From NCBI GenBank assembly GCA_964631415.1, contig CAZVZC010000007.1, positions 1 to 60,232 of the forward strand: DNA of 60,232 nucleotides, written 5' to 3'. Source of the stretch: an uncultured archaeon. GTDB taxonomy: Archaea > Asgardarchaeota > Thorarchaeia > Thorarchaeales > Thorarchaeaceae. A program made the translations under genes and the position numbers. This document shows, in pieces, positions 53,087 through 58,466 of this stretch. The notes below the pieces were generated by a model. The model had not been told where the DNA came from and searched no databases. It saw only the letters and a list, made by a program, of their open reading frames with translations. Each line of letters begins with the position of its first letter. The stretch's first letter is position 1.

Positions 53087-54520
53087 CTACTGAAGATAGT
53101 CAGCAAGATTCAGTTCGTCTGGTTCCACGTACCAGAAGTCACCCTCAAGATTCCAGTGTCGTACTAGGTCTAGCATCGCCCGAGAGCCCTTTTGGGCGAG
53201 AGTCATAATAGGCAGCACACTTTCTACGCCTCGCCTTCGCTCAAGAGACCTGAAGAACTGATAGTACTCCACCTGATGCTGGCTAGGAACTTGGATCCAG
53301 ACCACGACTCCTCGAGGGGAGAGATAGGACATCGCAGCAGGCATATGTGGCATTAGTGAAACCAGCCGTCGTTTCCACAATGGGCTGCACACTATCTCGA
53401 AGCAGAAGTTGGTCGAGAGACCCAGACCTCCAAAGACGACATCAGGTTCCAGAATGCCATGCTCAATCATCTTTCGAGTAGAGTATGCCACTTGCTTGGG
53501 GTCAATGTCCCAGCCCTTTATGCGAAGACTCTGACTGATAGCAGCCGGAGCAGCACGAATGTTAGATCTCAACTCGGAGGCGACTGCAAAGTCCTTTCGC
53601 TGAAAACCACGCGTCCTCCCTCGACAAGGCAGGATGTGTAACCCTACATAGGCGCTCTCAGTCGACTCCAAGTCATCAGGGCGACTGAGAATCTCAGGAA
53701 GAACCCAGTCCCCTCCCTCAAACAGTGAGAGGTTGATATCAGCACTGGCACCCTCTTGGACATGCATACTGGTATAGTCGAAAATGCTGCCTGTGAGCTT
53801 CTTCGTGCTAGACTCGAGGACGGATATCTCATTATCCTTTCCTGGAAACATGAATGAGGCGTAGCCTGTGTCACTCATCTCGGTCTTCAGGAGGGCTTTG
53901 GTGAATGGAAACTCTGCGAACTGTGTTTCAACCTCGCCCCATTCCGTGTTCTCTGCGAGTCTGAAGAACAGTATGACTGACTGGACTCCAAAAGCAGAGT
54001 TGTCAGAGAGACAGCTGAATCGTACTGTATGGTCTTTCTTCAATCGTGCTATGGACTTCACGACTGTCTTCGGGGCAATGCCAAGAGACTCAGCAATCTT
54101 GTTTACGGGAGCTAAGGGGGACTTGACAAGGTGCGAGAGCACCATGAAGTCCTTTTCACTCATGGGAGCCTCCTCAACAAGAAAGGCGAAGCTGTATGCT
54201 GACTTGATTGAGTCCGGCGTGTGTAGGTTGTATTTCTTCAGAGTTTTCAAGTTTTCAACAATCTTCGTTTCGAAGTGCTCATTCACAGGGACCAATGTTG
54301 GATCACAGGGGGACTTCGCAAACTCTGGATTCTCCTTCAAACGTTCGACAAATCGCATGGCATCCTCAAGAGTGACTGTTCCAGCGCACAAGGCAAGGTA
54401 CAGACGGATAGCTTCAAGGTAGAAGCGGGAGGATGCATCTTCGACTGATGGGAAGAGATCATCATAGGGTGTTGATATCTGTTGGAACGCACCCTGATCT
54501 AAAGCCAATTCTCGAAGCAC
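53087..54520 (-). CDS. Large multi-wHTH AsnC-like regulator
   Basis: SEKDFMVLSHLVKSPLAPVNKIAESLGIAPKTVVKSIARL; a second HTH-like unit in the C-terminal half. Confidence 0.75.
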   Translation of the reverse strand: MLRELALDQGAFQQISTPYDDLFPSVEDASSRFYLEAIRLYLALCAGTVTLEDAMRFVERLKENPEFAKSPCDPTLVPVNEHFETKIVENLKTLKKYNLHTPDSIKSAYSFAFLVEEAPMSEKDFMVLSHLVKSPLAPVNKIAESLGIAPKTVVKSIARLKKDHTVRFSCLSDNSAFGVQSVILFFRLAENTEWGEVETQFAEFPFTKALLKTEMSDTGYASFMFPGKDNEISVLESSTKKLTGSIFDYTSMHVQEGASADINLSLFEGGDWVLPEILSRPDDLESTESAYVGLHILPCRGRTRGFQRKDFAVASELRSNIRAAPAAISQSLRIKGWDIDPKQVAYSTRKMIEHGILEPDVVFGGLGLSTNFCFEIVCSPLWKRRLVSLMPHMPAAMSYLSPRGVVVWIQVPSQHQVEYYQFFRSLERRRGVESVLPIMTLAQKGSRAMLDLVRHWNLEGDFWYVEPDELNLADYLQ

Positions 54521-54575
54521 CTCTTTGGCTGTCGAACTCGAAGACTGTTCGCTCTCGCCAACCTGTTCCTACATG

Positions 54576-55658
54576 CTAGGAACCCAGTTTCTTGGTCTGA
54601 CTAGATAGAAGGTTCTCTAATGCTTTTCTGGTCATCGATTCCTGTGCTATGAATATGATTGCCTGAGCACTATGTCCAATCATGCGTTCCAGAGATGAGG
54701 AAAGGGCGACCCAGTTGCTTGAGATTGGCAGTTTCAGATCAAGTAATGATAGTCTGGGCCCAGACACCACTCTTGCCATGGGTAGAGCACCAGCCTGAAC
54801 ATGTAGCACCCTCGATAGGTTTTGTTCATTGGGATTGTTCTCAACACACACTAGCACCCTCTGTGCAAGACCAATGTTGTCAAGCTCGATGTATGGCTTT
54901 GCCCATTCATTCCGTATTCGTTCCAGATGTCGCCTCAAGGTCCTCTCAGAGAGCCGTCCCAATCCGAGTCTACGAAGACTTGCGGCCGCCTGTCTAGCTG
55001 AAGCATGATAGTCCAGTTGCACGACAGAGAGAAGAGCCGTGTCCACAATGGAACCCGAACCGGACTCGCTCTGCTTCAGCGTGTTCGTGACTGGAAGCAC
55101 GTCTGCATAACCTCGCGCGACGCCCGTGCTGGCTTGGAATCGGAACCCTTCGTCGAAATCCCAGCGTGAACCATCGAACAATCCAAGGTTGAGATGGTGA
55201 GACACTTCGGCGGCAGTGCCATGGACTATAGTCATGCCATGGAGCGTACTACAAAGCCTCTCCAGCTGGTTGGTGAACCATATCGTGCGCTCGCCTCTTG
55301 GAAGCACAGCCTCGAAATAGACTGTGGCGTATGTTGTGGAGGACAACAGGGAATACGTGGTATCCGACAAGAAGGCACTGGATTCGAGCCAGCCCCTGAA
55401 ACTCGCTAACGCTTTTGATGTGCTGGGAATCTGTGCCCAACCGAACAGCAAGGTCATGTCGACTTGCCCATAATCAATGATGGACCTGACTCTGAAGCCA
55501 TGGCTCTTGGTAAGTTTCCTCCATACCTGATTCACTGAAGATCTTGTCACACCCAAGCCCGTTGCTATGTCCACTTGGCGCATACTGGGGTCAATCGCAA
55601 GTTTCCTCAGAATCTTCAAATCTGCAGGCTCAAGATTCAACAGTTGCTCCGCTCCCAT
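54576..55658 (-). CDS. Large multi-wHTH AsnC-like regulator
   Basis: DLKILRKLAIDPSMRQVDIATGLGVTRSSVNQVWRKL; LSERTLRRHLERI. Confidence 0.78.
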   Translation of the reverse strand: MGAEQLLNLEPADLKILRKLAIDPSMRQVDIATGLGVTRSSVNQVWRKLTKSHGFRVRSIIDYGQVDMTLLFGWAQIPSTSKALASFRGWLESSAFLSDTTYSLLSSTTYATVYFEAVLPRGERTIWFTNQLERLCSTLHGMTIVHGTAAEVSHHLNLGLFDGSRWDFDEGFRFQASTGVARGYADVLPVTNTLKQSESGSGSIVDTALLSVVQLDYHASARQAAASLRRLGLGRLSERTLRRHLERIRNEWAKPYIELDNIGLAQRVLVCVENNPNEQNLSRVLHVQAGALPMARVVSGPRLSLLDLKLPISSNWVALSSSLERMIGHSAQAIIFIAQESMTRKALENLLSSQTKKLGS

Positions 55659-56552: not shown

Positions 56553-56810
56553 ATGATAGGAATAGAGAAAATGGACATTATGTCTGCACAATACCTTGCG
56601 ACGCCCGAAGAAGGTCGTGAAGTTGATGTCTTCAACGACCCAGAAATAGTAAGGCTTACCGCATTGAACTTGGAACTAGCAGTCAAGAATCTAATGGAGT
56701 CTCGTAGCCCACCCGAGTGCCTAGTCCTCACAGCTGACATATGCACCTATAGACTGACAGCTACGTCAACAGATGATGGCAAAGTCAGGGTGCTTGTGTT
56801 CGACTCGTGA
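56553..56810 (+). CDS. 85-aa hypothetical protein in the peptide operon
   Basis: GGAGG 9 nt before ATG; helix plus beta-hairpin pattern. Confidence 0.7.
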   Translation: MIGIEKMDIMSAQYLATPEEGREVDVFNDPEIVRLTALNLELAVKNLMESRSPPECLVLTADICTYRLTATSTDDGKVRVLVFDS

Positions 56811-57029
56811 GAAGACCTGAAGAAGAGTGTGCGAGGAAGCTCACGGAGAGACTGATCTCTCCTGGACGCCTCATCACGCTCAGGGCAGGAGGAGGCTTTA
56901 TAGCTCGGCAACATACTTGACGTCGCTCTGCGGACCCACGCCGGTCGCATCGAATAGGTCCAAAAATGATTGCGGCCGTGACGGCTTTCGGAGAGTGTTT
57001 TCACTAGCGGGAATAAGAAGGCAGGCGAC

Positions 57030-58466
57030 GTGGAAGAACATGCCCAAGAACCGACACCGAGTCAGGATGATAACCTGGTGACGAAGGTGTCTGGTACACG
57101 CCCAATCGACTCGGACGAGGAAAGGCTAGACGCTCAAGCCCCAGACAAGGGTGTGCGTTCCCGCGTGGGCATGAGAAACTCACTCAAGTTAGTGTTTTCA
57201 TGGCACAACTATCGAGTCTACTTGTTAACAGCTTGGGTGTTCAGTGCGTTCACAAGCATCTGGTCATTCTTCAACTTGTATCTACTTGCGATAGGTTGGC
57301 AATTCCTTACGATAGGAGCCGCGTCAACATTTGTGGGCGCATTGGCTGCAGTATCCCGACTGGTTGGCGGATACGTCGGCGACTCGTTTGATCGTAAAAA
57401 GCTGTCCGTCATCGCCATGATGATGGCGGCTGTCTATCACATCATAATCGGACTCTTCACAGACTTCACGCTGATACTAATTGGTCTGACAATCCTAGCA
57501 ACGATGGATGTCGCAAAGGGGGGATCCTCGGCATACATAATGGAGAACATTCCGAAGGATGACAGTGGGCTGGCCCTCTCACTCTTTACAGCGGGGAGAT
57601 CGTTGGGGATTGTTGTCTTGGTCGTATTCGGAGCCCTTGTACCAGTCGTGGGGTTCGGAGACGGACTGAGACTGATGTATCTCGTGGCGGGCGTGTCACT
57701 GCTCTTGTGCACTCTCGTCAGACAACGCTATCTCAGTTCCAGCAAGAAAAGACAGAGGCCGTCGGATGTTTCCCTCTGGCAGGACTTCTTACGGGAGAAC
57801 CGGCACGCCGCCAGACTGCTTCTCTCAGTTATGCCTGGCGTGTTGCTCGTTGTGATAGTCGACGCCCTCAGTGATGCCATCTTCCAGTTTGGCGCTTTGC
57901 TCTATGCCAAAGAGTATCTGGGCATTTCGATATCAGGCATCACCGTCATTGTGCTGGTACCCCTTATCGTATCGGTCCCTCTTCTGGTCAAGGTTGGTCG
58001 TGTGTCGGATCGAAGAGGGGTGAGAAGAGCAGCGTTGGGAGTGTATTCTGTCATGCCCGTTTGCGCGGCGCTGCTCATGCTTGCTCCTGTCTTTCCTTAC
58101 TGGATGCCAGCACCCATCATCGAAATGGCCGAAACGGCCGTGACAGGACTTGCAGTGGTCTTCTCGACGCCTTTCCTCGCAATCGTCATGAAGAATGTGA
58201 ATGACGCACTGTGGGGACTTGTTCTTATCACGTTGATACAGAAGAGACTCCCCATTCAGGACACTGCAAAAATCCTCGCAGTCTTTTGGTTCGTCGTATA
58301 CCTGTTCGCATCCATCGGACCATTCTTGGGAGGTCTGGTGTTTACCTACGCTCAGCCATCGCAGTTGTTTGCGATAGTCTTGGTGCTGAATCTCATAATA
58401 CTCGGCATGATCACGAGGATTGGCTTAGTTGCAGCCAACACAGAGGAAAGCCCGGCCGCTCGCTAA
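57030..58466 (+). CDS. Major facilitator superfamily transporter
   Basis: GGYVGDSFDRKK and GRVSDRRGVRR motif A in both halves; about 12 TM. Confidence 0.9.
   Translation: MEEHAQEPTPSQDDNLVTKVSGTRPIDSDEERLDAQAPDKGVRSRVGMRNSLKLVFSWHNYRVYLLTAWVFSAFTSIWSFFNLYLLAIGWQFLTIGAASTFVGALAAVSRLVGGYVGDSFDRKKLSVIAMMMAAVYHIIIGLFTDFTLILIGLTILATMDVAKGGSSAYIMENIPKDDSGLALSLFTAGRSLGIVVLVVFGALVPVVGFGDGLRLMYLVAGVSLLLCTLVRQRYLSSSKKRQRPSDVSLWQDFLRENRHAARLLLSVMPGVLLVVIVDALSDAIFQFGALLYAKEYLGISISGITVIVLVPLIVSVPLLVKVGRVSDRRGVRRAALGVYSVMPVCAALLMLAPVFPYWMPAPIIEMAETAVTGLAVVFSTPFLAIVMKNVNDALWGLVLITLIQKRLPIQDTAKILAVFWFVVYLFASIGPFLGGLVFTYAQPSQLFAIVLVLNLIILGMITRIGLVAANTEESPAAR

Follow-up and report, generated by a model that had tools for sequence, protein, structure and literature searches.

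A candidate micropeptide-receptor module built around an Lrp/AsnC-like protein in Thorarchaeota and other Asgard archaea

Gene-encoded peptide signals with cytoplasmic receptors are, to our knowledge, known only from Bacillota and their phages, and we know of nothing comparable that has been shown for archaea. Proteins with the Lrp/AsnC fold bind small ligands at the interfaces of their RAM domains, and such binding controls DNA binding. In leaderless communication peptide (LCP) systems of Bacillota such as RopB-SIP, an ultrashort open reading frame (ORF) directly encodes the mature peptide and mostly lies divergent from the gene for the cytoplasmic receptor-regulator, with the regulated genes on the peptide's side (PMC10518010). 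Here we describe a locus from a Thorarchaeota genome (Asgard archaea; 2.16-Mb assembly GCA_964631415.1, 85% complete) that can be compared with such systems. It occupies positions 53087-58466 of contig C7 (CAZVZC010000007.1); the whole 60,232-nt stretch analyzed is referred to below as the window. The minus strand carries two regulator-like genes, RegB and RegA, and the plus strand carries a small-protein gene (ORF63), two micro-ORFs, a gene for an 85-aa protein (ORF85) and a gene for a major facilitator superfamily (MFS) transporter. An earlier note, made from the sequence alone, had proposed these components as a peptide-signaling cassette, and all of them are indeed present.

The pairing of a RegB-like gene with a micro-ORF recurs in six Asgard families, and this makes the module a strong candidate for a circuit of gene-encoded peptide and receptor, which would be the first in archaea. 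The reading toward which we lean, if only slightly, is that of a micropeptide-receptor module, in which the micropeptide would be a trans-acting ligand whose free Pro-x-Pro-aromatic C-terminus is read by RegB. A full-text literature search (Asgard/Lrp/micropeptide) found no description of such a module.

Micro-ORF 1 (56277-56321, +) and micro-ORF 2 (56463-56507, +), of 14 codons each, encode an identical 14-residue proline-rich peptide with the C-terminus DPTPW. In both cases a Shine-Dalgarno (SD) sequence, GGAGG, lies exactly 10 nt ahead of the ATG (56262-56266 and 56448-56452, respectively). The micro-ORFs sit within an 88-nt direct repeat of 84% identity, and they differ from each other only in one silent Val codon and in the stop codon; Tandem Repeats Finder returned no match, the copies forming a dispersed pair with a 186-nt period. 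A tandem duplication that leaves the peptide identical raises its dosage, which we count in favor of a ligand. The C-terminal motif is also rare: when the whole assembly is translated in six frames, DP[TS]P[WFY]-stop turns up three times, every time within the same 400 nt of this locus, and the regular expression P.P[WFY]-stop had only about two other matches in the roughly 170 kb of flanking sequence that was fetched. The earlier note had counted three DPTP[WF] peptides; two of these stand as peptide genes, but the third is the C-terminus (DPTPF-stop) of the conserved small protein ORF63.

Conservation within the family was assessed on a sample obtained with a RegA search of 40 relatives, which included 24 same-family genomes from which 24 loci were fetched; the window and the 22 loci whose spacer is assembled make up the 23 evaluable loci. 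Gene order in these Thorarchaeaceae-level loci is constant: a luciferase-like gene, RegB, RegA and then, divergently, ORF63, the micro-ORF(s), ORF85, the MFS gene and Nth. All 23 evaluable loci have one or two SD-led ORFs of 11-15 codons at the same position, ending in P[WFY]-stop and in most cases in [DE]PxP[WFY]. The four genomes of this genus all carry two copies, whereas other loci have a single one. RegA was found in all 24 family genomes sampled, always directly upstream of RegB, and its identity falls to about 30% across the family loci while the micro-ORFs persist; RegB is present in 82 of 85 Thorarchaeaceae-level family genomes. Between close relatives the N-terminal half of the peptide diverges fast and the tail is retained. 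From the family-wide conservation of SD, start, stop and C-terminal motif we infer that the micro-ORFs are translated.

Synteny inside one family proves little, and recurrence beyond the family is for that reason the key result. Of 41 further RegB-like loci that were fetched, 23 (in families designated f6, f8, f12, and f13) have a leaderless micro-ORF of 9-17 codons, divergent from the RegB-like gene and 150-360 nt upstream of it; most of these micro-ORFs are preceded by an SD-like box (GGAG/GGTG/GTGA). These micro-ORFs end in Pro-x-Pro plus a hydrophobic or aromatic residue, sometimes followed by one or two extra residues. Downstream of the micro-ORF, most of these loci encode a protein of 70-110 aa that shares the helix-plus-sheet layout of ORF85; homology of ORF85 to these positional equivalents is weakly supported by profile comparison (hhalign probability 47.6%, E 1.9e-4), in addition to position. 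A low-GC metagenome contig that encodes a distant RegB relative (E 7.6e-16) likewise has a divergent, proline-rich ORF of 11 codons. The protein family itself is rare: in a set of 1.84 billion proteins, 112 representative clusters match at E ≤ 1e-10 and 48 at E ≤ 1e-30. Full-length RegB relatives (450-510 aa) occur in families f2, f6, f8, f12, f13, and f15.

Altogether, a RegB-like gene divergent from a micro-ORF was found in six Asgard families, the Thorarchaeaceae-level family and five others. The earlier note had tied its proposal to regulators and peptides being syntenic elsewhere, and this they are, in every evaluable family genome and in the five further families. MFS, RegA, and ORF63 genes were not seen in the inspected flanks of the RegB-like/micro-ORF modules of other families. 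Because the pairing recurs without these three, the RegB-like protein and the micro-ORF are the constant pair. As judged from this comparison of loci, the core of the module is a RegB-like protein plus a micro-ORF, usually with an ORF85-like protein, and RegA, ORF63, and the MFS transporter are family-level additions or neighbors that lie outside the core seen beyond the family. Where a RegB-like gene has no micro-ORF, it is in most cases either the downstream member of a tandem pair or an additional paralog in the Thorarchaeaceae-level family; no adjacent micro-ORF was found for the second genes of the f12 tandem pairs, for L060, L061, and L081, or for the distant contig L083.

Three Asgard loci outside Thorarchaeota carry a different form of the ORF, in which the proline-rich peptide stands behind a hydrophobic leader of 25-40 residues that ends in ..A|DP (L043:4865-5017, −; L053:3198-3317, −, in family f15; L063:4918-5076, +). 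Their organization resembles that of Sec-type pro-peptides and suggests secreted versions of the micro-ORF product. Family f12 shows further variation in layout. Six of its loci (L063-L066, L075, L080) have tandem RegB-like pairs that are split by a divergent ORF of about 90 aa with a helix-plus-sheet layout and no micro-ORF, and in these loci the gene after the micro-ORF of the first RegB-like gene is RidA-like, not ORF85-like; this arrangement looks like a second subtype of the module. At other f12 loci (L055, L059, L067-L069, L071, L073, L074, L076-L079), a conserved helical protein of 115-130 aa, for which no Pfam family was found, is encoded after the ORF85-like gene, often overlapping it.

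Related ORFs also occur away from RegB-like genes. In the genome studied here, outside the window, a stand-alone ORF of 44 codons (contig C17:15118-15261, −) consists of three near-identical, proline-rich units of ten residues, each ending in Trp and separated by linkers of 3 residues. It lies between two unrelated minus-strand genes, with no RegB-like gene nearby, and has the look of a precursor with several units of this class of peptide. When five genomes were scanned with a pattern, two canonical micro-ORFs and one stand-alone candidate, in genome G022, were recovered against a similar control background. The candidate (L084, G022:C1, 4291-4326, −) is an SD-led, proline-rich ORF of 11 codons that ends in Pro-Trp; its neighbors are a 690-aa gene and a rubrerythrin-like gene, and no RegB-like gene is anywhere close. 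Since the control pattern matched at a similar rate, this ORF may be either a stand-alone member or a chance match.

RegB (53087-54520, −; 477 aa), the candidate peptide receptor and regulator, consists of an N-terminal domain of about 115 aa and two Lrp/AsnC-like modules. Its residues 120-164 match Pfam HTH_24 with 22.5 bits (cutoff 21.9), whereas the AsnC-type Pfam matches of both RegB and RegA remain below cutoff. A RegB profile aligned over residues 118-214 with the Lrp/AsnC regulator PH1519 (E 1.3e-5), covering the helix-turn-helix (HTH) and part of the RAM domain, and weakly over residues 305-396 with LrpC. The first 115 residues had no family match in Pfam, NCBIfam, or PDB-sequence searches. 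RegA (54576-55658, −; 360 aa) is a paralog of RegB with two fused Lrp/AsnC modules but without the N-terminal domain. Its AlphaFold2 model (predicted local distance difference test score, pLDDT, 86.6; predicted template modeling score 0.87) has two successive modules, each a winged HTH (wHTH) plus an alpha/beta domain, with the wHTH units at residues 11-53 and 204-251. The top Foldseek matches of this model were to NirDL, a fused double-Lrp siroheme decarboxylase (4ch7, E 6.7e-7; 4czc, E 4.3e-6; template modeling (TM) scores 0.50-0.59), at a sequence identity of 10-11%, followed by many single Lrp/AsnC regulators (probability 1.0, target TM score 0.47-0.58). Matches of RegB to NCBIfam NF040708 and NF040707 (AhbA/AhbB) reached 16.2 and 12.3 bits, compared to cutoffs of 140 and 125, and RegA had no NCBIfam AhbA/AhbB match. 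The description of the two proteins as wHTH/AsnC-like regulators in the earlier note thus agrees with the wHTH and RAM-type domains found by Pfam, profile, and Foldseek comparisons. Both depart, being fused double modules, from the usual single Lrp/AsnC module of about 150 aa, which forms dimers or octamers and responds to free amino acids, and neither has a TPR or RRNPP domain in Pfam or NCBIfam.

ORF63 (55946-56137, +) would encode 63 aa from its ATG, but the start is probably the GTG at 55991, giving 48 aa, because relatives have an ATG at that position. The protein has a conserved helix and a C-terminal tail ending in DPTPF, so that its last five residues differ from those of the micropeptide solely in having Phe for Trp. 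Tail columns P56, C57, P62, and F63 are invariant in an alignment of 16 sequences. The helical core is kept in 19 of the 23 evaluable loci and in a truncated 24th; ORF63 was not detected in the other four, which are among the most distant family loci, nor outside the family, and it had no match in Pfam, NCBIfam, or PDB.

ORF85 (56553-56810, +) is, as the earlier note had it, an SD-led gene, with GGAGGAT 8-14 nt upstream. Its alignment has 62% mean column identity, and a hidden Markov model built for it found single-copy members in 74 of 85 family genomes and in none of 315 other Asgard genomes. In its model (pLDDT 81) the N-terminus is disordered, and the folded part comprises a single helix and a sheet of three strands. 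Fold matches to this helix and three strands are weak and mixed: MglB/Roadblock in Foldseek (E 0.08, TM score 0.43), and best Z scores in VIA of 5.8 (PAS) and 5.5 (longin-type), with 3.7 for Roadblock. Pfam, NCBIfam, PDB-sequence, and ESM Atlas feature searches gave no usable match.

Modeling of the proteins together points to RegB as the partner of the shared tail. RegB, RegA, ORF85, and ORF63 were folded together, each with its own alignment, and ORF63 was the scored partner and the only chain scored. The interface score ipSAE between ORF63 and RegB was 0.80 (individual runs 0.80, 0.81, and 0.72), against 0.00 for the best of three controls, and the score was abolished when RegB was replaced. 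The runs agree in at least 44% of contacts. On the partner side the confident interface is limited to the tail, ORF63 residues 53-63, and on the receptor side to RegB, where it involves residues 37-113 in the N-terminal domain, 165-255 in module 1, and 315-451 in module 2. The RegB interface residues are more conserved than the rest of the protein (0.64 vs. 0.55, permutation p 0.018), and they include the invariant Y41, R167, and W408 and the nearly invariant C373 and D451. The model supports binding of the tail to RegB. With the ORF63 tail as proxy for the peptide, the tail docks in RegB and contacts neither RegA nor ORF85. RegB also has an internal conserved segment, residues 70-77 (window 54290-54313, −), whose consensus P-x-D/N-P-T-x-x-P resembles the ligand tail. 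It is located at the modeled interface beside the docked tail and could be a lid or a pseudo-ligand.

The control region lies in the divergent spacer of about 290 nt between RegA and ORF63; RegB and RegA are separated by 55 nt. When 20 RegA-ORF63 spacers were aligned with MAFFT, a single non-coding block proved to be well conserved (TG.CC...TGTT.AG, 55670-55685). It is about 12-27 nt upstream of the RegA start and probably represents either the TATA region with the proximal element of a RegA transcript that is nearly leaderless, or an operator. The same alignment has a conserved ..CTT.TTAT.. block at the position of a TATA-like, AT-rich element (55806-55815, +), the likely promoter of an ORF63-peptide-ORF85 transcript; no comparable AT-rich box was found ahead of the micro-ORFs. 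Together with the way the genes are spaced and their individual SDs, the lack of AT-rich boxes between them points to a single transcript for ORF63, the micro-ORFs, and ORF85. A stem-loop of 6 bp (56331-56347, +) begins about 10 nt after the stop of micro-ORF 1, and a weaker hairpin of 5 bp is its counterpart after micro-ORF 2. Comparable hairpins (z about −2 to −3) are present in about half of the family loci and absent in others, and they leave the next SD uncovered. Rfam had no match in 55000-57500 at E ≤ 1.

Under the receptor reading, a promoter near 55806-55815 would drive one transcript of ORF63, the two micro-ORFs, and ORF85, and each micro-ORF would be translated from its own GGAGG into the 14-residue peptide. 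The free DPTPW tail is predicted to enter a pocket of RegB made of the N-terminal domain and the RAM-type halves of the two Lrp/AsnC modules. By analogy with ligand-controlled Lrp/AsnC proteins, occupancy of the pocket would alter the use of the RegB winged helices on the 290-bp divergent control region, with feedback on the peptide operon and on the regulators. RegB probably acts with its paralog RegA, and ORF63, which presents the same tail on a helical body, may compete with the peptide or replace it. The peptide may act between cells or within a single cell; leader-bearing relatives suggest that some peptides of this class leave the cell, and the MFS neighbor in this family is a further hint of export.

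Several other explanations would account for parts of the same evidence. The micro-ORF could encode a cis-acting leader or arrest peptide, in which the nascent proline-rich chain stalls the ribosome near the stop and sets ORF85 translation or the fate of the transcript, with no role after release. In almost every family locus it precedes ORF85 by 40-55 nt, with both apparently on a single transcript; its composition fits, and about half of the loci have a small hairpin after the stop. The best-conserved residues are the last ones ahead of the stop, and arrest peptides of the TnaC type are likewise conserved there. We nevertheless consider this explanation quite unlikely. The tail also ends a separate conserved protein, ORF63, and was modeled into the RegB pocket with clean controls; the hairpins leave the next SD unmasked and are missing from many loci, and Rfam has no match. 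Nor is the downstream gene the constant element, since the partner that persists across families is the divergent RegB-like gene, and some subtypes have unrelated genes, for example the RidA-like ORF, after the micro-ORF. Leader-bearing, export-type relatives and the stand-alone three-unit gene on C17 also argue against a role confined to the nascent chain.

Alternatively, RegA and RegB might be Lrp-fold enzymes or chaperones that modify or process the tail, with the micro-ORFs and ORF63 as scaffolds or as substrates similar to ribosomally synthesized and post-translationally modified peptides (RiPPs), and with the MFS transporter exporting the product. This proposal keeps a small probability because the nearest fused structure, NirDL, which is the best structural match of RegA, is an enzyme; the weak matches of RegB to AhbA and AhbB point the same way, as do the exporter gene after the cassette and the modeled pocket, which encloses the C-terminus and contains the invariant and nearly invariant residues listed above. 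We hold it to be very doubtful, given that AhbA scores 16 bits against a cutoff of 140 and NirDL identity is 10-11%, that the wHTH motifs are still recognizable by Pfam, that the module has no further biosynthetic enzyme in common between families, and that divergent placement relative to a target operon is typical of regulators. We give equally little credence to the idea that the peptide and the ORF63 tail belong constitutively to a RegA-RegB(-ORF85) complex, as small subunits or as factors for its assembly, and take no part in sensing or feedback. Such subunits would agree with components that are stoichiometrically co-encoded, single-copy, and near-universal in the family, and with a modeled tail that is deeply buried and contacted by three RegB domains, but a diffusible or dosage-dependent ligand fits better than a fixed subunit because close relatives already differ strongly in the N-terminal half of the peptide, loci have either one copy or two, and leader-bearing and multi-unit forms exist.

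The trans-acting ligand favored here has evidence of its own to contend with. Within-family synteny is weak evidence of linkage because the whole neighborhood is syntenic, and between close relatives the nucleotide conservation of the micro-ORFs is not above that of the spacer. Eight extra RegB-like paralogs in the family (L045-L052, from genomes G361, G346, G347, G017, G372, G367, G360, and G359; E 1e-48 to 1e-95) have no adjacent micro-ORF, and no adjacent ORF85 or ORF63 either; from this context, they could be receptors of the orphan kind. A k-mer search of the control region gave only the SD and an ORF63 coding motif, so that no operator was convincingly identified, and the closest fused double-Lrp structure belongs to an enzyme and not to a regulator. 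In the complex model the ORF63 tail stands in for the 14-mer, and the fold of ORF63 itself is uncertain, with a partner pLDDT of 37-38. The ipSAE mark was reached in calibration by 58 of 80 solved complexes and by 2 of 110 mismatched pairs, but these counts are only a rough guide for a model with four chains that each have their own shallow alignment.

The module pairs unannotated genes of 10-15 codons with a rare protein family, a combination maintained in six Asgard families. Should the peptide be the ligand of RegB, the ligand range of Lrp/AsnC proteins widens from amino acids to gene-encoded peptides, some micro-ORFs missed by gene callers are functional genes, and a synthetic 14-mer with two soluble proteins offers a testable way into the regulation of organisms that can be grown only with great difficulty. 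A peptide acting in cis would instead be an arrest peptide of a kind rare in archaea, so that either outcome would be new biology. A bolder extension is that this is the first gene-encoded peptide communication in archaea: Asgard cells would make, and some lineages would secrete, proline-rich peptides that are read by an Lrp-fold receptor, and the fast-diverging N-terminal halves would be lineage-specific "dialects." We regard this as unlikely on the present evidence; if true, the closest prokaryotic relatives of eukaryotes would possess a sensing circuit of entirely different parts than bacterial RRNPP.

The remaining genes of the region are of less certain relevance. The MFS gene (57030-58466, +) matches PF07690 (MFS_1) with 75.4 bits (cutoff 33.4, E 5e-21) and starts 220 nt after ORF85. 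The TATA-like element of its own that the earlier note had placed near 56897 was found as TTTATA at 56897-56902. The gene is syntenic in all family loci that reach that far, as are the flanking housekeeping genes, and its membership is uncertain because synteny within the family extends to the whole block, Nth and the luciferase-like oxidoreductase included. On either side of the region is a gene for an HhH-GPD base-excision glycosylase (MutY/EndoIII-type), at 50603-51292 (−) and 58429-59211 (+), the latter probably with its real start further downstream, as the longest ORF overlaps the MFS stop. Beyond RegB are a Flavoprotein-family gene (PF02441; 51289-51852, −) and the luciferase-like oxidoreductase gene (52014-53006, +), which is syntenic with the cassette in most Thorarchaeaceae-level loci and for which no sign of cassette membership was found. 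We also considered a defense system and dropped this idea, as PADLOC matched only the wHTH of RegB (CasR/Csa3-type HTH).

Each of the described systems closest to this module shares some of its features. As in arrest peptides such as TnaC and SecM, a short upstream ORF with prolines and a conserved C-terminus stands directly before the next cistron; unlike in those cases, the tail is shared with a separate protein and was modeled into a receptor, no switch-like RNA structure was found, and there are stand-alone, multi-unit, and leader-bearing relatives. The fused or paired double-Lrp architecture, with two paralogous genes in tandem, is shared with NirDL and AhbA-AhbB, but the neighborhood examined contains no heme or d1 genes and has a peptide gene as the constant neighbor. 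With the Lrp/AsnC regulators (FL11 PH1519, LrpA, and Escherichia coli AsnC), RegA and RegB have in common a winged HTH followed by a RAM-type alpha/beta domain; they differ in having two modules per chain and, for RegB, an extra 115-aa domain, a presumed peptide-tail ligand, and a modeled pocket formed by three domains.

The likeness in organization is to RopB-SIP and other LCP systems and to the RRNPP(A) systems (Rgg-SHP, PlcR-PapR), where a short peptide gene also adjoins the gene for its receptor (in the Asgard module it is divergent from the receptor-like gene or genes, at 150-650 nt), where leaderless and leader-bearing forms coexist, and where the conserved, recognized part is the C-terminus of the peptide. 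On the other hand, the receptor candidate has a fused double Lrp/AsnC fold with an N-terminal domain and not the TPR fold of Rap, NprR, PlcR, PrgX, and Rgg, the Asgard peptides are acidic and proline-rich and not hydrophobic, the host is an archaeon, and the module is without an Opp-type importer or a PptAB-type exporter. The earlier note had proposed a circuit analogous but non-homologous to RRNPP; the logic matches that of LCP systems, and the receptor candidate has no TPR domain. By this analogy, the module may work like an RRNPP system without being a member of that group.

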